Sequence record: OP617741.1
DNA: 64,000 nt
Direction: 5' to 3' (one strand)
Source: Klebsiella phage KP13-16
The position numbers and the translations under genes are program-made. Of this stretch, positions 4,754 to 48,634 are shown one piece after another. Each line of letters begins with the position of its first letter. The stretch's first letter is position 1. Below the pieces are notes generated by a model, which saw only the letters and a program-made list of their open reading frames with translations, searched no databases and was not told the origin of the DNA.

Positions 4754-5335
4754 TTAGTTAGTAAAAACACCTACCCATTCTTGAAAACTCTTATCATAAA
4801 ACTCATTTACTTGATTGTAAATAAAAGTTCCATCTGCTTGTTTCTCAAATACACCAACAAGAAGCGACTCATCTGTAGAAGAACCTTTTTCAGAGATATT
4901 ACAAGAACCAATAGTTTTACCTGAGTCAAGGTCACGAAGAACAACACTAGCACCATCTACCTGAGCAAAACTCTGATTTCGTGCTCGTGCATTGTAGATA
5001 TAAACCAAAACTGGAATACGATCTCCGTCTGAAGACACATTTTCAAGATTAATATCCAGGAACTCATCAACACCATCACCAATACCAGTTTGATTATCAG
5101 GGGAGACGTTAATTGCTTTAGTCTGTTTTTGCCCCCAGTATGCAACTTCACTAGCTGATACAGCTTGCAGATTTTCATTCTTACAGACTGCGCCAAGAAC
5201 ATCCAGATCAAAATCATGTGAAGATGAATTGGTATTAGGATTCCAGGATAACTCTACACGAACTCGTTTTAGTGGAGTTTTGCCATCTTCTTTAACCATT
5301 GGCAATGAAGAACCTTTTTCCAGATTAAGTGACAT
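4754..5335 (-). CDS. terD: TerD-family stress response protein
   Basis: 193 aa; DFDLDVLGA, GDGVDE, RARNQSFAQVDGA align closely to E. coli TerD (DFDLDASAF, GDGDDE, QARRQSFGQVSGA). Confidence 0.85.
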   Translation of the reverse strand: MSLNLEKGSSLPMVKEDGKTPLKRVRVELSWNPNTNSSSHDFDLDVLGAVCKNENLQAVSASEVAYWGQKQTKAINVSPDNQTGIGDGVDEFLDINLENVSSDGDRIPVLVYIYNARARNQSFAQVDGASVVLRDLDSGKTIGSCNISEKGSSTDESLLVGVFEKQADGTFIYNQVNEFYDKSFQEWVGVFTN

Positions 5336-9075: not shown

Positions 9076-10053
9076 TCAAGCTTCTTTTTTCTCAGGAAAA
9101 ACCAGACTTGCAATAATACCCAAGGCCAGAGTCCCAAGCACAATACAAAGACTCACATTTGCTGAGATATCATGTGGCAAGAAAGACCATTTTGCATTTA
9201 GTGTCTCACCAAAAGGATGGTAAATCAGTTTAGCACCTACAAACACTAGAACTACAGCAACGGCTTTTTCCAGATGAACCAAGTATTTAACTGCTACACT
9301 CAGTACAAAGAACAGTGCACGGAGACCAAGAATTGCAAATAACATTGCAGAGTAAACCAGCAGAGGTTCTTGCGTCACACCAATTACAGCCGGGACAGAG
9401 TCAAAGGAGAAAATTACATCAGTAAACTCCACTACAAAGACACACAACAAAGCCGGAGTTGCATACTTGATCCCGTTCTTAATGGTGATAAATTTCTCGC
9501 CATCTAGAGCCGGATGAACAGGAAGAATCTTACCAACCAGACGAGTCGCCCAGTGTTTAGAGTAATCAACTTCATCTTCCTCATCATCACCGCCTTTGAT
9601 AATAGCCAGTGCAGACCATGCTACAATCAGACCGAACAGCACTTGGAAAAACCAGTGTAAATTAAAGATTGCCGTACCTGCTGCCACAAAGATACCTCGA
9701 AATACAATGGCACCAGCAATACCCCAAAGAAGAATCTTATGCTGTAAGTGTGTTGATTTGATCCCGAAGCTAGCGAATATTGCCATGAACACCATCAAGT
9801 TATCCACAGACAATGATTTTTCTAGCACATACCCACTCAGAAACAAAGAGGCAAATTCTTTGCCATACTCTACCCAAATAAAACCATAGTATGCAAATGC
9901 TAATGCGATCCAAAATGCAGACCAAGCCAATGCAGACTTAATACCGATCTCTTTATTTTCCTTGTGTCCAAAGAAATCTACAAGGATTGATAGTGCAAGA
10001 ACTCCAACAAGAACTGCAATATCCAGAAGGGGGAACCCAAAATGATGTGTCAC
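9076..10053 (-). CDS. terC: TerC-family integral membrane protein
   Basis: 325 aa multi-TM; conserved EKSLSVDNLMVF and EFTDVIFSFDSVPAV repeats typical of TerC/Alx. Confidence 0.75.
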   Translation of the reverse strand: MTHHFGFPLLDIAVLVGVLALSILVDFFGHKENKEIGIKSALAWSAFWIALAFAYYGFIWVEYGKEFASLFLSGYVLEKSLSVDNLMVFMAIFASFGIKSTHLQHKILLWGIAGAIVFRGIFVAAGTAIFNLHWFFQVLFGLIVAWSALAIIKGGDDEEDEVDYSKHWATRLVGKILPVHPALDGEKFITIKNGIKYATPALLCVFVVEFTDVIFSFDSVPAVIGVTQEPLLVYSAMLFAILGLRALFFVLSVAVKYLVHLEKAVAVVLVFVGAKLIYHPFGETLNAKWSFLPHDISANVSLCIVLGTLALGIIASLVFPEKKEA

Positions 10054-15213: not shown

Positions 15214-15845
15214 TAATATTCTCCTATTCCACAATAAAGAGTTTCTCTTGTATTATTTAAATCTTCAGAAACTCTATTAATTTCTTTTTGTAAGATATCC
15301 TTATACTGAGGATATTTTTCTATCAAAGTTAAACCTTGATTTATATACAACATTTGCCAAGCTCTATGTGCTTCAACAGGATCTGTGAAACCATGTATGG
15401 CAATATCATGAAACCTAGCCCTATATCGAGGTACTTTCTGATATTTATTTTTCTGTTCAGAAACTCCCAATGGTAAATTATTTTTAGAGTATCTTTTTAT
15501 AATATAATTATTTAAATCTTTACCTACAAAACCACAGGTGCTTGGAGAGTATATTTTACTAACCCCAGATAAGAGATCCTTGTCCAGTTCCTTTCCTTCC
15601 CAATCTTGGGTTTCCATCCAGGCACGAAAATTACCAAATGTCAACCATTCTTCACAAACACTACAACCTTTATAAGTAGGAAATCTTCTTTGGTAATTTT
15701 CACTATAACAACGCCTTAGCATATTCGTCCAACGATCATAATATGGATCTCGCCAAAATACAACTTCTTTACCATTCATACGTTTACTTTTTTGAGTTAT
15801 ATCTTCTAGATCATTGTATCCCTTACCAAAAAGTAATTTATTCAT
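15213..15845 (-). CDS. AP2-domain DNA-binding protein (homing-endonuclease-associated type), paralog of 20239-20901
   Basis: LPLGVS...KYQKVPRYRARF...GFTDPVEAHRAW = AP2 domain; N-terminal W..RW..M..RC..C..CEEW block shared with paralog. Confidence 0.5.
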   Translation of the reverse strand: MNKLLFGKGYNDLEDITQKSKRMNGKEVVFWRDPYYDRWTNMLRRCYSENYQRRFPTYKGCSVCEEWLTFGNFRAWMETQDWEGKELDKDLLSGVSKIYSPSTCGFVGKDLNNYIIKRYSKNNLPLGVSEQKNKYQKVPRYRARFHDIAIHGFTDPVEAHRAWQMLYINQGLTLIEKYPQYKDILQKEINRVSEDLNNTRETLYCGIGEY

Positions 15846-34245: not shown

Positions 34246-34484
34246 AAGTTATTATTACAGCAGAGGCACGTGTTCATCTTTCTAAAATTGTAGAAATGAG
34301 TGAAGAAGATTATGAAAAATATAAAGAAATTGTTGTTGATTCTACGGGTTTAACTTATAGAGAAATAGATCAAGAGATTGCAAAACTCGCAGATAAATAT
34401 GATTTTGGTTATGGTGACGATATAGAGGACATGGAAGACCCGGAAGAGGTTACTTTTCAGGTTTTTAAAGAGGGTTCAAATTGA
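34242..34484 (+). CDS. hypothetical acidic protein (80 aa)
   Basis: ORF track. Confidence 0.3.
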   Translation: MKVIITAEARVHLSKIVEMSEEDYEKYKEIVVDSTGLTYREIDQEIAKLADKYDFGYGDDIEDMEDPEEVTFQVFKEGSN

Positions 34485-37400
34485 AAAAATTTTCACCTAC
34501 AAAAGAGCAAAAAGAATCTTTAAATGTTTTTGAAATTGAACAGATTCTAAAGATTTCAGCAAAGGCTGGTACAGGTAAGGCCCAACCACTCACAGCAGTA
34601 GTAAAAACCCCAAACGGGGATGTAGAATTAGGAAAAATTAATATTGGAGATTCTGTATTTAGAAAAGATGGCAGTATTGGTAAAGTAACAGGAGTTTTTC
34701 CTCAAGATGGACTTCAACCAACATATAAAGTAACGTTTCGAGATGGATCTAGTACAGAATGTAATGGTGAGCACATTTGGAGTGTATATGGAGGGAAATA
34801 TAAGGATAAAATTGTTAACAGAACTTTAAATGAAATGCTTGAAAAAGGCTTATATAATTCTCTGGGAGATATGAAGTATAAGATTCCTATGGCAGAACCA
34901 GTCCAATATCAAACAAAAGCCTTTGATATTGATCCATATGTTTTAGGAGTTTTAATTGGTGATGGCTATCTTTGTGGAACAACACCAGCGTTTAGTGTAG
35001 GAGAAAAAGATAAAGAAATCTTAGAGTTGGTTCAAAAAATTTATCCAAATTGGATTTATGGGAAACATATTACAGGTAAAAATTGTATCCAGTATAGTAT
35101 CTCAGAGCCAACGAAAGGTAGAGTAAATAATATTAAAAATAAAATAGAAAATCTTGGTTTAAATGTAAAATCAAGCTTTAAATTTATACCTAATGAGTAT
35201 TTATATGGAGATGTCCGCCAAAGAATCCAATTACTTAGAGGGTTAATGGATACAGATGGAAGTTGCGTTAAAAATAGAACAAGTTTTACATCAACATCAA
35301 AAAACTTAATATTAGACTTAAAGACTCTTGTTCAAAGTCTTGGTGGAACAGCCATTGAAACTTATGTAGATGTGAGGAGTGAAAATTCATGTTATACATT
35401 GAATATTAAAACTCCAATGTGTCCTTTTAAGGTTAAAAGTAAAGCTTCACTTTGGACTAAAAGCAGTAAAAATCCTCCATCAAGATATATCAAGAGTGTT
35501 GAGTATGTAGGTGAAAAAGAACAAGTCTGTATCTCCGTTGACAGCGATGACCAATTATATTTAACAGATGAGTTTATTGTTACACATAATACATCAACAC
35601 TTAAATTTATTGCTGAATCTCATCCTGAGTTGACTTTCTTATATGTAGCTTTTAATAAGAGTATGGCAAACGATGCAGCCAAGAAGTTCCCAGATAACGT
35701 GCATGTTATGACCATTCATTCACTGGCATATCGTAACATTGGTAAGCACTATGCTCATAAATTGACTCGCCCAACTGGTCGTTATATTAATATGGCTGGG
35801 ACAGGATCTGAGATTGCACAACATTACGGTATTTTTGATATGAAAGACCATAATGGGGCGGTCTTGACTAAAAATTATCTTGGATTAATTGTAAAAGATA
35901 CAGTTAATACTTTTGAAAGGTCTGATAAAGATAAAATTACAGAATTTCATATTCCTAAGTTCCATATGGATGATGTCAAACGTCGATTTGCTCTTAAAGA
36001 ATCTAAAGTTAAAAAGGAAATTTTGAGTGTTGCTAAAAAACTTTGGGAAGATCGTTGTGACAAAGAGGAACGAATCCTTTGCACACATGATACTTATCTA
36101 AAACTGTATCAGATGAGTAAACCTAAGTTTGAAACTTATGACTGTGTTCTGATTGACGAAGCACAGGATACTAGTGATGTAATGATTTCACTTTTCTCTA
36201 ATATTAAACCTAAAATCGTCTATGTTGGTGATAAACACCAATGTGTTTCTGGAGAAACTGTACTTGAGACACCTTGTGGTAATAAGCTTATGCAAGATCT
36301 TTCCATAGGAGATGAAGTAAAATCTTACAGAAACGGTCAACAAGTCTATCGTAGAGTGTTGAATAAAACTTTATCAAATCGTACAGAAGGATTAAGTGTT
36401 GCTACTCGGAATGGTAATATCCTAGATATGACACTAAATCATAAAATTTGGGCTACCAGTTTTAATTTACAAGAAAAACAGATGATTGTATATCTTATGT
36501 GGAGAAAAGACCTTGGATTCCGTGTTGGTATTACCAATAAGATAAAAGATAGTTATGGTAATATTAGTTTTGGTCAGAGAACTTTACATGAACGTGCACA
36601 AAAATTTTGGATTCTAGATGTTGTAGCTAATCGTGAGGAAGCTCTTGAAAAAGAACTTACATATAGCTTACAGTATGGTATCCCAATGTGCGTATATGAA
36701 GCAAAATCACGAGGTCTGAATCAAGATCGTATTAATAACATTTTTAAAATTTTTGGCAAAAATGGTTTCATTTTATTATCAGAAAAAGATTACTCTTTTG
36801 AATACCCGCATTGGCACAATATCAATTCACGCTCAGTTAACCGTAAAATGTTAACAGTACATTTGACAGCACATTGTGTCAAAGGTAGCCAAGTTTCTTT
36901 TGAGTGGACAGAGGAAGACATGCCAATTACTTCTACTTTAGAAGATGCTGGAATTAAAGTTACATATGCTAAAAAGAGTGGAAGATTTCGTGTACGTAAA
37001 TGGTTTAGTAGCTACATTGAAGCATTAGAGTTTTCTAATGATATTTGTGATTTAGTACCTTATGCATCAATTACAGAGCGAATGGCCTACACATCTGAGC
37101 ACAAGTTAAATTTATTACCTGCGGCTTGTCTGTTTGAAGGGATGTCTGTACTAATAGATGATGGATGTGGAAATACTGTAATAGATGAGATTATCTCTAT
37201 TACCCCACATAAAGGTGAGTATTTTGATATTGAAGTAGAAGATACTGCTAATTTCTTTGGTAATGGAATTCTTAGCCATAACTGCATTTACGGTTGGCGT
37301 GGATCAGTTAACGCTATGGAGAAAATCAGTGCACCAGAAGTTAAATTAACTCAATCATTCCGATTTGGTAAAGATATTGCAGATGTAGCAAAATTGATTA

Positions 37401-38077
37401 TTGATGAAGAGGTAACAGGACTGGAATCTATTAAGTCAATTGTTGGTGAGATTGATCCTAATAAGCCTTATACTGTCCTTTATCGTAAGAATGTGACCTT
37501 AATTTTTGAAGCACTTGAGATGATTGCAAGAGGTGAGAAAATCTTCCTGAATATTGATGTAAGGGACTTTGTCTCTATGCTCGAATCTGCTCTATATCTT
37601 CACAATAAACAAATTAAGAAGGTTAAACATGAGCTTATTGTACCATACGCAACATGGGGAGATTTAGTCAATGAAGCACAATCTGATCCAAGTATGGGTA
37701 AACTCGTTAAAATTGTCCAGGAAGGTCGTGCTCAAGAAGTTATCAACAATTTAAACTTTAGTGAAAAGAGTGAAGCGACTGCTGATGTTATTTTGACAAC
37801 TAGCCATAAAGCGAAGGGTCTTGAATGGGATCAGGTTGTCCTTGCAGATGATTTTAAGTCTTGTTATGACAGTAAAGGTAAACTTCAGAAAGTTGACCAA
37901 GAAGAAGATAACCTACTTTATGTAGCTTGTACTCGTGCACGTAAAGTCCTGAAACCAAACAGTGTTGTTGAAGAAAAATTTCTGTTAAAAGGAATCCCTA
38001 TCCCTTATAAAATTGCACATTTTGGTGTAGGCGATAGTGAAAGTATTGACCAATTTTTTGTTACTGAGGAGCAATAA
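34481..38077 (+). CDS. UvrD/PcrA-like SF1 DNA helicase interrupted by two inteins (extein ~514 aa)
   Basis: Walker A reconstituted as AKAGTGK|TSTL across intein 1; motif III reconstituted as VGDKHQ|CIYGWRGS across intein 2; C-terminal ILTTSHKAKGLEWDQVVL and LLYVACTRARKVL (motif VI-like). Confidence 0.7.
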   Translation: MKKFSPTKEQKESLNVFEIEQILKISAKAGTGKAQPLTAVVKTPNGDVELGKINIGDSVFRKDGSIGKVTGVFPQDGLQPTYKVTFRDGSSTECNGEHIWSVYGGKYKDKIVNRTLNEMLEKGLYNSLGDMKYKIPMAEPVQYQTKAFDIDPYVLGVLIGDGYLCGTTPAFSVGEKDKEILELVQKIYPNWIYGKHITGKNCIQYSISEPTKGRVNNIKNKIENLGLNVKSSFKFIPNEYLYGDVRQRIQLLRGLMDTDGSCVKNRTSFTSTSKNLILDLKTLVQSLGGTAIETYVDVRSENSCYTLNIKTPMCPFKVKSKASLWTKSSKNPPSRYIKSVEYVGEKEQVCISVDSDDQLYLTDEFIVTHNTSTLKFIAESHPELTFLYVAFNKSMANDAAKKFPDNVHVMTIHSLAYRNIGKHYAHKLTRPTGRYINMAGTGSEIAQHYGIFDMKDHNGAVLTKNYLGLIVKDTVNTFERSDKDKITEFHIPKFHMDDVKRRFALKESKVKKEILSVAKKLWEDRCDKEERILCTHDTYLKLYQMSKPKFETYDCVLIDEAQDTSDVMISLFSNIKPKIVYVGDKHQCVSGETVLETPCGNKLMQDLSIGDEVKSYRNGQQVYRRVLNKTLSNRTEGLSVATRNGNILDMTLNHKIWATSFNLQEKQMIVYLMWRKDLGFRVGITNKIKDSYGNISFGQRTLHERAQKFWILDVVANREEALEKELTYSLQYGIPMCVYEAKSRGLNQDRINNIFKIFGKNGFILLSEKDYSFEYPHWHNINSRSVNRKMLTVHLTAHCVKGSQVSFEWTEEDMPITSTLEDAGIKVTYAKKSGRFRVRKWFSSYIEALEFSNDICDLVPYASITERMAYTSEHKLNLLPAACLFEGMSVLIDDGCGNTVIDEIISITPHKGEYFDIEVEDTANFFGNGILSHNCIYGWRGSVNAMEKISAPEVKLTQSFRFGKDIADVAKLIIDEEVTGLESIKSIVGEIDPNKPYTVLYRKNVTLIFEALEMIARGEKIFLNIDVRDFVSMLESALYLHNKQIKKVKHELIVPYATWGDLVNEAQSDPSMGKLVKIVQEGRAQEVINNLNFSEKSEATADVILTTSHKAKGLEWDQVVLADDFKSCYDSKGKLQKVDQEEDNLLYVACTRARKVLKPNSVVEEKFLLKGIPIPYKIAHFGVGDSESIDQFFVTEEQ
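34580..35590 (+). mobile_element. intein 1 (337 aa) in helicase P-loop, with LAGLIDADG homing endonuclease domain
   Basis: block A-like AQPLTAVVKTPNGDVELGKINIGDSVF starting with Ala; two LAGLIDADG motifs (YVLGVLIGDGYL, LLRGLMDTDGSC); C-terminal IVTHN followed by Thr+1; length divisible by 3. Confidence 0.65.
36242..37282 (+). mobile_element. intein 2 (347 aa) in helicase motif III
   Basis: canonical block A CVSGETVLETPCGNKLMQDLSIGDEV, block B TLNHKIW, C-terminal GILSHN followed by Cys+1; central insert domain of unrecognised type. Confidence 0.65.
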
Positions 38078-38805: not shown

Positions 38806-39142
38806 TTTTAAGTCAGGTACTGGTAAGATTACTATCAATGGACAGGATTATATTGGTGGTAATATGTATATTAATGGTGATAAAGTTGTGATAGATGGAA
38901 AAGTTATCATGGATAGTCTTGTTGGAGACCTAAATATCACTATTCATGGAGACGTCGATAAGCTTGAGACGGGTTCAGGAGATGCTACTATTTACGGAAA
39001 TGTTGAGAGTGCTTCGACCATGAGCGGAGATCTTTTTTGTGAAACAGTTAAAGGAGATGCAAGCACTATGTCAGGGGATATCAATGCTAAGACAATTCAT
39101 GGTAAAGCTAAATCAATGTCTGGAGATATTAACTATAAATGA
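38795..39142 (+). CDS. small protein with tandem GD/MSGD beta-strand repeats
   Basis: repeated STMSGDLF / STMSGDIN / KSMSGDIN and GDxxIxG units; bactofilin/beta-helix-like repetitiveness. Confidence 0.35.
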   Translation: MNFNFKSGTGKITINGQDYIGGNMYINGDKVVIDGKVIMDSLVGDLNITIHGDVDKLETGSGDATIYGNVESASTMSGDLFCETVKGDASTMSGDINAKTIHGKAKSMSGDINYK

Positions 39143-39816
39143 ATAAAGTCATCTATTGTATGTATGACGGATCTGGAATAGCAGGATTGCCATGGGCAGA
39201 AGCAGGATTTAACGTCTATTGCTTTAATGCCGATGAAGGTGATCATGGTGAATACTTCATTAAAATGCAACACCCTAATCTTCATTATATTAATATCTGG
39301 ATTGATAAAGATTTTAGACTAAAAGTAAAAGATATGGGAATACCTGATCCTAATTTTATTTTTGCTTTCCCAGACTGTACTAATGTTGCTGTAAGCGGTG
39401 CTCAACATGAAAAGACATCTGAACAAAAGAATGATGTAGTCCGTTCAGCTAAGTATGTAGAGTGGCTAGGTAATTATTATAATTGTCCTTGGATTGTCGA
39501 GAATCCTGTTTCTCAATTAGCAACTAAGTGGAGAAAACCAAATTCATATTTTGACCCGTATGAGTACGGCGGCTATCTCACAGGTGAAGAAGAACAGTTT
39601 CATCCAAAAATGCCAAAGTTTGATGCTTATACTAAGAAAACATCTCTTTGGTATGGAAATGGCTTTAAAGTTCCACCTAAGAAGCCAGTGCAACACATTG
39701 GCTATTGTTGGTCTTGGAGACATCTAGGCGGGAAGGGCAAGAAAACTAAAATTTTACGTTCTTTAACTCCACGTGGATGGGCGAAGGCTGTTTTTGAAAG
39801 TAACTCAGGATTGTGA
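39139..39816 (+). CDS. short C5-cytosine DNA methyltransferase-like protein (225 aa)
   Basis: motif I-like CMYDGSGIAG, motif IV-like FPDC, motif VI IVENPV; lacks a full-size target recognition region. Confidence 0.4.
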   Translation: MNKVIYCMYDGSGIAGLPWAEAGFNVYCFNADEGDHGEYFIKMQHPNLHYINIWIDKDFRLKVKDMGIPDPNFIFAFPDCTNVAVSGAQHEKTSEQKNDVVRSAKYVEWLGNYYNCPWIVENPVSQLATKWRKPNSYFDPYEYGGYLTGEEEQFHPKMPKFDAYTKKTSLWYGNGFKVPPKKPVQHIGYCWSWRHLGGKGKKTKILRSLTPRGWAKAVFESNSGL

Positions 39817-39980
39817 TATTTTATTGATCAGAGCTTTTATATTTTGACTTAAAAATCTGCACAAGAGAAGGCTTCACCTAAAATCTATGAGAAATTACGG
39901 TCTAGCTTTCTTTATATTAGGTGTATATTTAGTTTAAATAAAGTTTCATGTTAAAAGCATGTTCGATCTAGCATTTTTGA

Positions 39981-40225
39981 CATTTCGGATTTTAAAATCC
40001 ATAATTTTTTAGTGAAAAGTCAATTCCATGTTTTTAAAAGTGACATTTACAATGCAATGCAGTATAGCAAATACAGATTTTTATTCAAAATGTTTAATAT
40101 TCAAACCGTTTTAAATTTTATGAAAATTTTTTGTGGCAAATCGGGAAAAATTTGTAGCATTTTGGACATCCCTATTTTCAAAATCCATAATTTTCTGGTT
40201 CACATCATACCCATGTTTTTATCCA
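39981..40225 (+). repeat. imperfect ~60-bp direct repeat pair in AT-rich intergenic region
   Basis: ACATTTCGGATTTTAAAATCCATAATTTTTT...CCATGTTTTTA (39981-40045) vs ACATCCCTATTTTCAAAATCCATAATTTTCT...CCATGTTTTTA (40161-40225). Confidence 0.5.
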
Positions 40226-40251
40226 GGCAGTTTCTTGGGAATATCTCTAAG

Positions 40252-40330
40252 TGAGAATGGTTCTCATTTGAGAAGTTGAATGATAATCATTCTCATTTAT
40301 AAAACGAAATAAGACTCATTCGCATTTGCG
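40252..40330 (+). promoter_or_regulatory. cluster of Fur-box-like palindromic operators overlapping a sigma70-like promoter
   Basis: TGAGAATggTTCTCA (40252-40266); TTGAAT(40276-81)-GATAATCATTCTCATT-TATAAA(40298-40303), box 15/16 to Fur consensus core AATGATAATCATTATC; third half-site AGACTCATTCGCATT. Confidence 0.5.
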
Positions 40331-40583
40331 GAATGACGGGCAGGTTCGGTGTTTGTCTCGCGATTCCCGTTACCCCTCGCCATGTAGAAATAATAACATA
40401 ACCAACACTAGGATCAAGCGTCTTTACATTTCTTTACAAAACTATTCAAGGCGAGCTACCGGCGATTCACCTTCCGACCTGGCCCCCGCGCCTGGTACGT
40501 TAGCCCCGCCTTTTCGCCGTGGGGTGGCGTGTCCTCTTCTTTATGGATACATTATGCCCCATTCCCTGGGGCGTGTCAACACA

Positions 40584-40793
40584 TTAAACACCATATTTGA
40601 TAAAATCCCTGGCGGCTTGTGTAGGCTGATATTCTACGCCGTAAGCGTCATCCACCTGCACAAGAAAACCTTTCTTAATCAAGCCCGTTATTGCCCGGCG
40701 AGCTGCTGTATAACTGGTGAAATGTGAATCATTGCTAAAAGTGAAACCGTGTTTAATAGCTATTTCAAGAGTGAGTTTTTCTGTTTTGGTCAT
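40584..40793 (-). CDS. small hypothetical protein (69 aa), GC-rich
   Basis: ORF track; coherent composition; possible winged-helix-like. Confidence 0.35.
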   Translation of the reverse strand: MTKTEKLTLEIAIKHGFTFSNDSHFTSYTAARRAITGLIKKGFLVQVDDAYGVEYQPTQAARDFIKYGV

Positions 40794-40898
40794 TGTCCGA
40801 TCCTCGTTATGCCTCCACCGTGGCGGCTTGTTAATTACTATATACTAATGAAGGGAAAACGCAAGCGAAAAATTTAGAAAAATATTTGCATCCAAGTA

Positions 40899-40927
40899 TT
40901 GACGGGAAGATCAAGAGGGACTATTAT
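40899..40927 (+). promoter_or_regulatory. sigma70-like promoter
   Basis: TTGACG-N17-TATTAT upstream of ORF 40991. Confidence 0.4.
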
Positions 40928-40990
40928 TCACTACACAAGGCGAGGCGATAGGCGCACCGTGAGAGCAACGATAACCAGGAAGAAAAGAAA

Positions 40991-41212
40991 ATGGCAACAT
41001 TACACGTAGTAGTTTATAAGCACGCGGTAACGGGCGATGATATGATCCAGGTGCTTGTTAATGGCTTTTGTGAAATGGAACGAGAAGGCGATTTCAACGG
41101 TTATTGCATTGTGTGTGCTTTCCTTGATTCCCTGGTTGAAATGTGTGTTATCACTCATGAGCAGCGCGAAGCGAAGATCAACCGCCTGAAAAAACTTTTA
41201 GATATCGAATAA
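40991..41212 (+). CDS. hypothetical protein (73 aa)
   Basis: ORF track. Confidence 0.35.
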   Translation: MATLHVVVYKHAVTGDDMIQVLVNGFCEMEREGDFNGYCIVCAFLDSLVEMCVITHEQREAKINRLKKLLDIE

Positions 41213-41219
41213 AAACCGC

Positions 41220-41278
41220 TTGACAGATTCGCACAGTAACGTATAATTCACTTCATAGGCAGCGGGAATGGTTCCCGC
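41220..41278 (+). promoter_or_regulatory. PeSL-like cassette: consensus sigma70 promoter + stem-loop
   Basis: TTGACA(41220-25)-N16-TATAAT(41242-47) followed by hairpin GCGGGAA-tgg-TTCCCGC (41262-41278). Confidence 0.55.
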
Positions 41279-41301
41279 GCCGATATAAAGAGATTTGAAA
41301 A

Positions 41302-41592
41302 ATGAAAATTTCAGAGAACAAAGATTTAATTTTCACCGTTAAAAATTATATCCGCCACCCGTATGAATTTGGCGGATATCCGAAAATTTTAATTATGCGT
41401 GATGGTAGTTGCCTTTGTTCAAAGTGTACGCATGAAAATTTTCCCCGCCTATTGGAAGAATTAAGAGATGAGAGTGATCTAGCATGGATGCCCGCGGACG
41501 TGGATGTTTTCTGGGAAGGTGCGGATTTCCCGTGTGGTAATTGCCAGACTCCGATCCATAGTGCATATGGAGATCCCGAAGAAGAAGAATAA
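41302..41592 (+). CDS. hypothetical Cys-rich protein (96 aa)
   Basis: ORF track; CLCSKCTHE...CGNCQ. Confidence 0.35.
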   Translation: MKISENKDLIFTVKNYIRHPYEFGGYPKILIMRDGSCLCSKCTHENFPRLLEELRDESDLAWMPADVDVFWEGADFPCGNCQTPIHSAYGDPEEEE

Positions 41593-41595
41593 ATA

Positions 41596-41652
41596 TTGAC
41601 AAGCATCTAAAAGATAGTAAACTGTTAATCAAAGGGCGGGAATGGTTCCCGC
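41596..41652 (+). promoter_or_regulatory. PeSL-like cassette: TTGACA + same stem-loop
   Basis: TTGACA(41596-41601) and identical hairpin GCGGGAATGGTTCCCGC (41636-41652) in 5' leader of next ORF. Confidence 0.5.
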
Positions 41653-41672
41653 CAAAACAAAGAGAGAAAATT

Positions 41673-41834
41673 ATGATTGCTATGAATACCCGCGAAGCCG
41701 CTCGCAACGTAGCCCGTAAAGTTAATGCCGTTGCACCTGCTAAATTGAAAGCACCAGTGAAAGGCGAAAACGGCTGGATCTTCCCTGGCTTGTCTCATGC
41801 CGACAACAAAGGCACTTTGAGCCTGAAAAAATAA
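41673..41834 (+). CDS. small hypothetical protein (53 aa)
   Basis: below cutoff; RBS AGAGAG. Confidence 0.3.
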   Translation: MIAMNTREAARNVARKVNAVAPAKLKAPVKGENGWIFPGLSHADNKGTLSLKK

Positions 41835-41835
41835 G

Positions 41836-41872
41836 TTGACTTTTCGTTATAGCGCCTTATAATGGGCGCTAT
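41836..41872 (+). promoter_or_regulatory. sigma70-like promoter with inverted repeat flanking -10
   Basis: TTGACT-N16-TATAAT(41858-63); TATAGCGCC / GGCGCTATA palindrome around -10; first 15 nt identical to promoter at 42841. Confidence 0.5.
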
Positions 41873-41898
41873 AGAGAAGAGAAACCAGGAGTAGAAAA

Positions 41899-42051
41899 AT
41901 GAAAATGTATAACGTGGTAGTAGTGAACAATAAAACAGGCGTCAAAGTGATCATGAATGCTTCACCGTTAACCCATTTAGAAGGTTGCACTATGTTAGCT
42001 AAACTAACCAAATACACCTGGCGAACAGAAAAATTAGAAGAAATTTGTTGA
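41899..42051 (+). CDS. small hypothetical protein (50 aa)
   Basis: below cutoff; RBS GGAG; stop overlaps next TTGACT. Confidence 0.3.
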   Translation: MKMYNVVVVNNKTGVKVIMNASPLTHLEGCTMLAKLTKYTWRTEKLEEIC

Positions 42052-45969: not shown

Positions 45970-46212
45970 ATGAATGCTGTAGATATCTTTTTAGCGGCTT
46001 ATGTTAAAGCAATGTTGTGGAGTAGTAGCGGCACAGACCAGGACGGCGAAGATCTGGAAAGTCTGGAAGGGTTCGAACTTTCCACCGAATCGCTGAAAAA
46101 AGCTAAAGAAGATTGCGAATCATTCTTATTTGCATCAAAAGCGCTTTTCGCTGATTTGCCTACCTGGTACGGGAAAGGCGACGGCGGGATCTATGCTTAT
46201 CTCAGAGCATGA
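45970..46212 (+). CDS. hypothetical protein (80 aa)
   Basis: ORF track. Confidence 0.35.
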   Translation: MNAVDIFLAAYVKAMLWSSSGTDQDGEDLESLEGFELSTESLKKAKEDCESFLFASKALFADLPTWYGKGDGGIYAYLRA

Positions 46213-46379
46213 TTAATGAGATTGATTCTCGTTATTCAATGGCGCTTGAATATCAAGCACAAGCACAATACTTACAGCTTGATATTGAAGAGCAACAAGA
46301 TCAAGACGCTTTTTGGGAACACCAGGACGCTCAAGCGGATTTTGATGCAAAACTCAATATGTATTATAACGAATATTAA
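46209..46379 (+). CDS. small acidic/Gln-rich protein (56 aa)
   Basis: protein-like composition; preferred over overlapping ORF-track 46216-46482 frame. Confidence 0.3.
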   Translation: MINEIDSRYSMALEYQAQAQYLQLDIEEQQDQDAFWEHQDAQADFDAKLNMYYNEY

Positions 46380-47439: not shown

Positions 47440-47620
47440 GCGAACATATATAGAGTAAAGTAACACCCTCCCTTTGGTCGTGAGTTCCTCTCTATATTGT
47501 TCGCTTGAGAACATTATGAGAGAATATCTCACCTTATAAATTATCGAACAATATAGAGAGTGATCCTAAAAGCTTTCAGTTGAAAGCTTTAAGTCTCCCT
47601 TTACTCTATATATGTTCGTT
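47440..47620 (+). repeat. nested perfect inverted repeats (potential ~180-nt cruciform/structured RNA)
   Basis: CGAACATATATAGAGTAAAG (47441-60) / CTTTACTCTATATATGTTCG (47599-618); inner CTCTATATTGTTCG / CGAACAATATAGAG; plus AAAGCTTTCAGTTGAAAGCTTT palindrome. Confidence 0.55.
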
Positions 47621-47929
47621 TTCTGAATGATTGCAAGTGCAATCAATTGCTACGCAATCAAATATGTTCGATAATGCTTTGTCAAGAATATAATGGATAA
47701 TGTTATAAATAAATATCTTTACTTTTAATAAAATTTGCCTGTTTACAGGTGGGCATAGCCCATCCCGGAAGGGACAAAATTTATGTGTGCAAATCCATTA
47801 AAATACTAAACAAGATTTTGATTGACTTTGTCAATTTGATGCGGGCATCAACTTAGCGAATAGCTAAGCATTGTTTTCTCTTTTCACTTGACAAGGCACC
47901 TTTTCAAAAATTTTTTCTTATGCGTAAAC

Positions 47930-48120
47930 GCAAATGAGATTTATTCTCACTTGACCATGAATGAGAATTATTCTAAATCTGATAATAATTCGTATTTGTT
48001 ATTGATTGCGCGATGTCGCAGAGCCGACAGAAAGCGCGAGGATCCTACGTGTAACAGTTATCAAACAGGCGGTTGACCTGTTATAAAGCTTGATTGATAA
48101 TCATTCTCATTCAAGATTTG
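47930..48120 (+). promoter_or_regulatory. second cluster of Fur-box-like palindromic operators overlapping sigma70-like promoters
   Basis: AATGAGAtttATTCTCA (47933-49); TTGACC(47951-56)-AATGAGAATTATTCTAAAT; TTGATT(48090-95)-GATAATCATTCTCATTC-AAGATT nearly identical to 40276-40303. Confidence 0.5.
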
Positions 48121-48149
48121 TTTTAGAGCAGAACTTGCAGAAAATGTCA

Positions 48150-48520
48150 AGAATCTGGGAGGAAATATATTTTTTATTTTGCTTGATATTTTAAAATTAT
48201 CAGGGTTCAAAATCTGGCACAACTTCGGCTATTAAGCACTGAGGACATAGAGCTTGAGCACTGTGGATGTAAATCCTAGAAGTAGATATATTCTGGGAGG
48301 GTTATGCCTTTTGTTAATTGAATCAATACTTTATAGATATTAAGGTTGCGTAAAGCAACTCAGACGTGAACGTCCATTATATTTTCTGGGAGGATATTTT
48401 AAAGATGGTGCCCCTGTTTTTAATTCTGAAATTTGGGGGAGGGGTGTAAAATTGAGTGGAAAACAGAGGTTAGTCAAATTGACTATTAATTAGTGGTTAA
48501 ATTGACTATTAATGAATAAT
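48150..48520 (+). repeat. short dispersed repeats in ~1-kb non-coding tract
   Basis: TCTGGGAGG x3 (48150, 48290, 48386) plus TTTGGGGGAGGGG; tandem AAATTGACTATTAAT x2 (48474-48512). Confidence 0.45.
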
Positions 48521-48634
48521 TATTCAGGGGTGTTTGATGGTAAGCAGGTTAGATGTTTATGCTATCGACACATTAGAGGAATATGTTTAAGAAATGTCAT
48601 TTTATCGACATATTGATGAGAATAGTAACTAATC

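Follow-up and report, generated by a model that had tools for sequence, protein, structure and literature searches.

The DNA analysed here is a 64,000-nucleotide stretch (hereafter the window) of the Klebsiella myovirus KP13-16 (OP617741.1), whose closest public relative is vB_KpM_FBKp34 of the Stephanstirmvirinae (91% identity across window positions 39802-40544). Three palindromes of 19 bp each, spaced evenly at 29 bp from centre to centre, lie at 40250-40326 in a gap of about 770 bp without credible open reading frames (ORFs), with a DNA methyltransferase gene (39139-39816) on one side and a minus-strand gene for a 69-aa protein on the other. The plus strand reads from an intein-bearing UvrD-type helicase through the methyltransferase into a long run of small genes, and in FBKp34 the whole corresponding arm is transcribed one way, up to a convergence zone at its end. 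The palindromes form the left edge of a non-coding block of about 330 bp (window ~40250-40580), and we propose that they are quite probably an array of binding sites for Fur, the iron sensor of the host.

Box A (40250-40268, AGTGAGAATGGTTCTCATT) scores 23.9 bits on the phage-derived weight matrix described below and is kept in the Stephanstirmvirinae and Certrevirus lineages. Box B (40279-40297, AATGATAATCATTCTCATT) scores 31.1 bits, has no mismatch to the degenerate palindrome AATGAKAATNATTMTCATT and is a single substitution away from AATGATAATCATTATCATT, the Fur palindrome with full symmetry. Box C (40308-40326, AATAAGACTCATTCGCATT), with 21.8 bits, stands where the array is conserved most widely, and relatives reach 24-31 bits there. 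All three are imperfect palindromes within three mismatches of the degenerate form. Six bases past box C stands CGGAAT (40329-40334), a conserved nAGAAT hexamer whose GAAT is invariant in 19 aligned sequences and which may represent an additional Fur half-site or hexamer, or else a weak -10 element. An earlier reading, made from the letters alone (the sequence-only reading), had described a Fur core flanked by two half-palindromes, and the strings that it quoted are all present, with coordinates off by a base or two. The core holds, since AATGATAATCATTCTC (40279-40294) agrees with AATGATAATCATTATC in 15 of 16 positions; the flanking elements are likewise there, and are better described, like the central one, as full 19-bp palindromes. 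The Fur-box consensus is given as the classical 19-mer GATAATGATAATCATTATC or in the 7-1-7 form TGATAATnATTATCA; the 19-mer is matched in 15 of 19 positions at 40276, which lay beyond an earlier search permitting three mismatches.

Several lines of evidence bear on the identity of these palindromes. With at most three mismatches, the degenerate palindrome is matched 12 times in the window against an expectation of 0.58, and none of 100 shuffles reached 12; the window palindromes are statistically non-random, and they are conserved. A symmetric weight matrix was derived from 115 unique phage boxes, with the consensus AATGA[G/T]AAT[C/G]ATT[C/A]TCATT, and was used to scan 290 kb of Escherichia coli K-12 picked to include known Fur targets. 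Fifteen positions at nine loci scored at least 12 bits, and seven of the nine loci are the control regions of fepA-fes, fepD-entS, fepB-entC, fhuA, fecA, fecI and sodA, whose regulation by Fur is established knowledge. The window boxes, at 21.8-31.1 bits, compare with 22.3 bits for the best native K-12 site (fecI), and sites of at least 20 bits number nine in the 64-kb window versus one in the 290 kb of E. coli. The fur gene's own operator, a weak one, scored only 8.6 bits on the phage matrix. The remaining two K-12 loci, in the map-rpsB/tff intergenic region (L111 44581, 18.6 bits) and the yojI-alkB intergenic region (L114 18671, 15.8 bits), have scores like those of genuine Fur operators; neither is confirmed as a Fur target.

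The same symmetry could serve RNA hairpins (terminators, processing sites or the repeats of a structured RNA) or DNA cruciforms, as each box is self-complementary and the array is reachable by transcription from both sides. Across 145 boxes, however, the observed complementary fraction equals the expected one at all nine position pairs, and G or T at position 6 is uncorrelated with C or A at position 14 (odds ratio 0.99, p = 1). Arms that vary independently therefore point to a dimeric protein site and not to a hairpin or cruciform. The imperfect palindromes would moreover form AT-rich stems without U-tract architecture, and a terminator scan of the window called none. We consider the hairpin or cruciform reading extremely improbable and reject it on the independence of the arms. 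The centres of neighbouring boxes are spaced by 17, 23, 29, 35, 41 and 47 bp, with 57 of 72 spacings equal to 5 modulo 6 (counts drawn from related sequences and hence not independent), so that successive spacing classes are one 6-bp Fur-array unit apart. The phage matrix recovers known Fur-regulated E. coli promoters and little else, which, together with the independent arms, supports the Fur-box identity put forward in the sequence-only reading. By dyad consensus, shared matrix and dimeric-site character alike the window boxes present themselves as Fur boxes, and judged by their letters they cannot be told apart from native Fur operators, and indeed surpass them.

The ~330-bp block of which the boxes are the left edge occurs in 279 phage records, nearly full length in 189 of them, and is unannotated in almost all. 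Its holders belong to the Stephanstirmvirinae (phi92 and phAPEC8 types) and to the Vequintavirinae (Certrevirus phiTE/CR3/CR9, Mydovirus KB57 and Seunavirus), and in alignments the boxes stay palindromic and in place while the spacers between them drift. On its own, the box cluster also matches T5-like siphoviruses: window 40252-40333 finds Sealy, Spivey, S147, Gostya9 and others by blastn. Among 5,426 E. coli genomes the cluster had no match, and a host or prophage origin was rejected on that basis.

This distribution also bears on which protein reads the boxes. Early phage regions are rich in small uncharacterised DNA-binding proteins, only 64 kb of the genome is covered here, and G at position 6 (GAGAAT) is found in 57% of phage boxes, commoner than in the textbook Fur consensus, all of which would suit a phage-encoded repressor that has Fur-like specificity by chance. 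Such a repressor is nevertheless quite improbable, given that three unrelated phage groups have these boxes in common but no candidate binder, that the matrix cross-recognises native Fur operators, including those at fecI and fhuA that contain GAGAAT or ATTCTC, and that the T5 boxes lie on the first DNA to enter the cell, ahead of any phage protein. Within the 64-kb window we found neither a Fur homologue nor homologues of the T5 pre-early proteins, and both a phage-encoded Fur and a shared T5 pre-early DNA-binding protein were dropped as candidates. The 69-aa gene was likewise rejected as the cognate binder: it matched no Pfam or PHROG family, and its homologues are confined to 34 phage records, none of them T5-like. 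With the boxes shared and no phage binder found, the economical reader is a host factor common to all these hosts, a role that Fur fits. We infer Fur binding, and all of the consequences considered below, from these comparisons.

In T5 (NC_005859), the boxes occupy 9552-9715, within the annotated injection stop signal, and score 17-31 bits, up to 31.1. The T5 region was seen to hold at least four Fur-box-like palindromes, including AATGAGAATCATTATCATT at 9656. The T5 boxes correspond to the DRC repeats and palindromes palE-palJ of Repeat Region 3 in the left terminal repeat (Davison, bioRxiv 10.1101/866236); that preprint does not mention Fur in connection with these palindromes, and neither does a 2026 T5 preprint, in which the region is termed 'rich in repeats and palindromes'. 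A literature search, which did not cover subscription-only papers, turned up neither a description of Fur boxes in T5-, phi92- or rV5-type phages nor transcriptomes of these phages. Repeat Region 3 and the array in the window share the similarity of the box cluster, the 29-bp spacing and a large non-coding setting beside tandem repeats. The T5 array differs in lying within a terminal repeat, where it adjoins DnaA-box pairs, a nick and nine DRD repeats, and in having no link to the GC-rich promoter module described below; near the window array at 40250-40326 (cluster 1), no DnaA box, LexA box or DRD repeat was found. In the T5-likes Sealy (L009 ~1610-1740) and S147 (L010 ~1640-1770), about eight copies of TCGGATTTGCACA precede the Fur boxes, and behind the boxes come DnaA boxes (TTATCCACA and variants) together with a perfect LexA box, TACTGTATATTTATACAGTA. 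Candidate sites for several host regulators are in this way packed into one non-coding region of T5-like phages.

To the right of the boxes, the conserved block carries two conserved minus-strand sigma-70 promoters directed towards them. P1 (TTGACA-N17-CATAAT, 40551-40579, 11 of 12 positions) abuts the stop codon of the 69-aa gene, and its 17-nt spacer is a GC-rich hairpin, lineage-specific in sequence yet self-complementary, which may also serve as a terminator for the minus-strand gene upstream. The P1 hairpin was called terminator-like in phiTE and phi92. P2 (TTGATC-N16-TATTAT, 40390-40417) has TG directly ahead of its -10 hexamer; its hexamers, like those of P1, are conserved and its spacer is variable, the form in KB57 and phiTE being TTGCAA-N17-TATATT. 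From the expected P2 start at about 40383, the boxes fall at +57 to +133. The promoter scan called both P1 and P2 again in KB57 and phiTE, and P1 only, not P2, in phi92.

Five nucleotides upstream of the P2 -35 hexamer lies the only strict match in the window to GTAAA-N5-GTAAA (40423-40437, minus strand), which is the consensus for phosphorylated CpxR (CpxR~P). It forms part of a CpxR-type motif, TTTTGTAAAGAAATGTAAAGA (40421-40443, minus strand), and its position just upstream of a sigma-70 promoter is that of a putative CpxR box. Strict matches in the 290 kb of K-12 number two, one of them in the cpxR-cpxP intergenic region. The most invariant stretch of the region, TCTTTACnnTTCTTTACAAA (40421-40440; the 21-nt motif), recurs in 97 stretches of viral contigs (IMG/VR), part of which, a family with CATTGTGG...CTCTTTACC context, apparently lies within conserved coding sequence and is not promoter-associated. 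In T5-likes, the pre-early T5.009 promoter has the motif immediately ahead of its -35 (T5 5077-5096), and in FBKp34 a GTAAA-N5-GTAAA (15231-15245) lies beside an annotated promoter. The best E. coli matches of the longer phage motif are upstream of ldtD, a gene of the Cpx regulon, and in micF-rcsD. OmpR was dropped as the reader of the motif in favour of CpxR, which fits, as the ompF and ompC sites were not recovered. An 84-kb metagenomic phage (L068) holds five copies of the 21-nt motif. These placements suggest that early phage promoters may be wired to the envelope-stress response of the host.

Transcription can also approach the boxes from the left. Two 45-nt direct repeats on the plus strand (39969-40013 and 40155-40199) each carry a promoter pointing to the boxes, TTGACA-N17-CATAAT at 39977-40005 and TGGACA-N17-CATAAT at 40163-40191, both of them strong in this phage. 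The spacer of the first contains the palindrome GGATTTTAAAATCC (39987-40000), and the expected start of the second, at about 40198, places the boxes at +52 to +128. Tandem repeats immediately left of the boxes were found in all three relatives examined (KB57, phiTE and phi92; 1240-1442 in L005, 1256-1460 in L011 and 2249-2420 in L002), as three copies of about 63 nt in KB57 and phi92 and as shorter units of the GGGTCTCGATC type in phiTE. Repeat sequences are lineage-specific and the boxes and P1/P2 module are shared, a pattern that resembles iterons.

Such repeats raise the prospect that the region is a cis-acting DNA element, either an iteron-type, transcription-activated origin or a site like the T5 injection stop, with Fur as an architectural accessory. 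Consistent with it are the lineage-specific repeats directly before the boxes, the AT-rich trough (23-27% GC) at the repeats, the two tandem promoters that fire toward the region, the location of the T5 boxes in the injection stop signal beside DRD repeats, DnaA boxes and a nick, and one DRD-like and two DnaA*-like motifs in a second box cluster of the window. Against it, Fur has no known architectural or replication role, the T5 origins map to mid-genome (Davison, 10.1101/866236), cluster 1 has neither DnaA nor LexA boxes nearby, and those relatives whose records begin near the element carry no annotated terminal repeat, although these records are uninformative on proximity to a physical genome end. 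We regard a cis-acting element of this kind as rather improbable.

The sequence-only reading had also placed the central box in a classical Fur-repressed promoter. TTGAAT (40276-40281), the 16-nt spacer GATAATCATTCTCATT (40282-40297) and TATAAA (40298-40303) are indeed where it put them, and this promoter-like element (40276-40303, plus strand) has box B filling its spacer and box C covering its expected start at about 40310. It matches the promoter consensus in 9 of 12 positions but lacks the T at -7, the final base of the -10, which is almost invariant, and for this reason the promoter scanner passed over the element. When the same promoter rule was used on 19 aligned relatives, 9 of 12 was reached only by the window (with the -7 T not required) and by the distant relative L042 (TTGAAT-N18-TAGAAT). 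FBKp34 bears an annotated 'promoter' at the homologous place. As a conserved feature the classical architecture does not stand, being absent from 17 of the 19 relatives.

The stretch that this promoter would transcribe had been described as lacking a convincing ORF and as the possible source of an iron-regulated small RNA (sRNA) or antisense RNA. The first part is borne out: the region right of the boxes is conserved and is non-coding because the alignment shows indels of 1 and 3 nt in it, and scans against Rfam (E <= 1) and for tRNAs, covering 39000-42000 as well as the entire window, returned no match. It comprises two conserved GC-rich segments, of which 40335-40389 forms on the minus strand a leader of about 55 nt from P2 to the boxes, and 40444-40550 (49-56% GC, C-rich on the plus strand) has no ORF and no stable fold; this GC-rich island adjoins the trough of 23-27% GC. 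On neither strand did 40336-40545 fold better than shuffled sequence (z = +0.57 and +0.56), and alignment folding gave about -20 kcal/mol with essentially no covariation (terms of -0.26 and -0.99 kcal/mol for the two strands), on which grounds a structured RNA in 40336-40545 was rejected. A conserved minus-strand ORF beyond P2 and the boxes was looked for and is not present. On the plus strand, KB57 and phi92 have a weak hairpin plus a T-rich tail. An iron-regulated RNA is accordingly possible and not indicated, with no fold signal, a weak and unconserved promoter, and the conserved promoters on the opposite strand. The comparison with the Fur-repressed sRNAs RyhB and PrrF is similarly divided: as there, a Fur box at a promoter-like element is followed by conserved non-coding sequence, whereas the window lacks an Rfam match, a fold signal, covariation and a terminator, and its promoter is weak and unconserved.

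We favour an interpretation in which the array is an iron-dependent operator or roadblock for host Fur within a regulatory hub, and hold it tentatively, at somewhat less than even chances. In an iron-replete cell, Fe2+-Fur dimers would occupy all three sites. Bound Fur would occlude the weak embedded rightward promoter, through box B in its spacer and box C over its start, and would act as a roadblock between converging transcription, from P2 with its CpxR box leftward and from the promoters at 39977-40005 and 40163-40191 rightward, thereby separating P2 transcription from the rightward early-gene arm. With scarce iron, Fur would leave and transcription would cross the array, such that the activity of the hub would be coupled to the iron status of the host.

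Several observations weigh against this proposal. No rightward promoter runs over the boxes in 17 of the 19 relatives, and the T5 boxes overlap no annotated promoter; promoter occlusion is therefore ruled out as the conserved function. Fur does not, to our knowledge, usually act as a roadblock within transcribed regions. No conserved gene or structured RNA was found downstream of the array in either direction. Finally, sites that surpass the native operators in strength and are repeated within each genome would fit a sink for Fur equally well.

As a sink, the arrays would soak up host Fur while the phage genome replicates, and their position relative to promoters would be irrelevant. This would de-repress the iron-uptake and iron-sparing regulon of the host, along with the NrdHIEF reductase, itself under Fur repression, and phage DNA synthesis would profit. 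The super-consensus strength of the boxes (21.8-31.1 bits versus at most 22.3 for native sites), their density (nine sites of at least 20 bits in 64 kb versus one in 290 kb of E. coli) and the inconsistent overlap of arrays with promoters all favour such titration. By rough arithmetic, about 10 palindromes, with up to two dimers each and 100-500 genome copies, would be comparable in magnitude to the cellular Fur pool of thousands of molecules. A sink, however, needs neither the fixed position of the array beside the P2/CpxR module in two subfamilies nor a best box placed exactly on a -10 hexamer, as in cluster 2 of the window; titration would be effective only late in infection, and the de-repression of FhuA would be counter-productive for T5 progeny. 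Titration as the function of the arrays seems unlikely on balance, and it is compatible with the operator or roadblock interpretation, the two not being exclusive.

The second cluster (47933-48111) consists of boxes at 47933, 47960 and 48093, which score 21.9, 21.5 and 27.0 bits, in a non-coding zone of about 1 kb (47540-48560) at the end of the rightward transcription arm. Its best box (48093-48111) overlaps the -10 and the start of TTGACC-N17-GATAAT (48073-48101, plus strand, 10 of 12 positions). FBKp34 alone shares the cluster, which there occupies the meeting zone of two convergent transcription arms. Also present in the zone 47540-48560 are a DRD-like TGTGCAAATCC (47786), DnaA*-like motifs (GTTATCAAACAGG and CTGTTATAAAG) and repeated TCTGGGAGG motifs. 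Further strong Fur-box matches at 46112-46130 (21.9 bits) and 46215-46233 (23.2 bits) fall in, or at the junction of, the small ORFs 45970-46212 and 46209-46379.

Two of the neighbouring genes deserve description. The UvrD-type helicase ORF (34481-38077, plus strand) encodes 1198 aa versus 514 aa in FBKp34, and is probably interrupted by two inteins, because its two insertions carry a LAGLIDADG_3 match (aa 249-292) and a Hint / intein-splicing match (aa 585-934). The 69-aa orphan gene (40584-40793, minus strand) adjoins the P1/P2 module and is, as we read it, an accessory gene that is mobile and occupies a hot spot of insertion. Homologues of its product with 50-54% identity are encoded by the jumbo coliphages of about 350 kb 121Q, G17 and phAPEC6, and also by Bordetella and Burkholderia phages.

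Compared with iucA and other enterobacterial Fur operators, the phage array has the same 19-bp dyad (AATGA[G/T]AATCATT[C/A]TCATT versus GATAATGAGAATCATTATT at iucA), the same use of several adjacent sites and, in the window array and cluster 2, a box set within the spacer, or across the -10, of a candidate sigma-70 promoter. It differs in residing in a virulent phage with no iron-related gene nearby, in being made of discrete full palindromes 29 bp apart and not of overlapping hexamers at 6-bp offsets, in the greater strength of its sites and in a promoter overlap that is not conserved among relatives.

The stx1 promoter of Shiga-toxin prophages is regulated by Fur. Boxes for host factors are also found in lytic phages, namely Pho boxes in cyanophages (PMC10976474) and CtrA boxes in alphaproteobacterial phages (PMC9437464). 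Neither Fur operators nor boxes for host factors are new to phages as a kind, and these cases resemble the present one in that a phage carries sites for a global regulator of its host, with activity tracking host physiology. In those examples the boxes precede identifiable genes (pstS, stx1 and late genes), whereas the Fur boxes described here come as multi-site arrays beside a CpxR consensus, to which the T5-likes add DnaA and LexA boxes.

A more far-reaching possibility, which we consider doubtful, is that T5-like, phi92-like and rV5-like virulent phages share hubs of host-regulator sites (for Fur and CpxR, and in T5-likes also for DnaA and LexA) in which the Fur arrays are functional, either as the cis-element of the T5 injection stop or as a Fur sink that reprograms iron and deoxynucleotide (dNTP) metabolism, and that host iron thereby gates early infection. 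If Fur does bind, many well-known virulent phages, the model phage T5 included, would be wired to the iron sensor of their host, among them candidates for therapy against Klebsiella, E. coli, Salmonella and Cronobacter. In an infected animal iron is normally limiting, and such wiring would therefore be relevant to phage performance in vivo. Together, the Fur boxes and the CpxR consensus suggest that early regulatory regions of these phages may integrate host stress signals, from iron and from the envelope, by means of borrowed operators.

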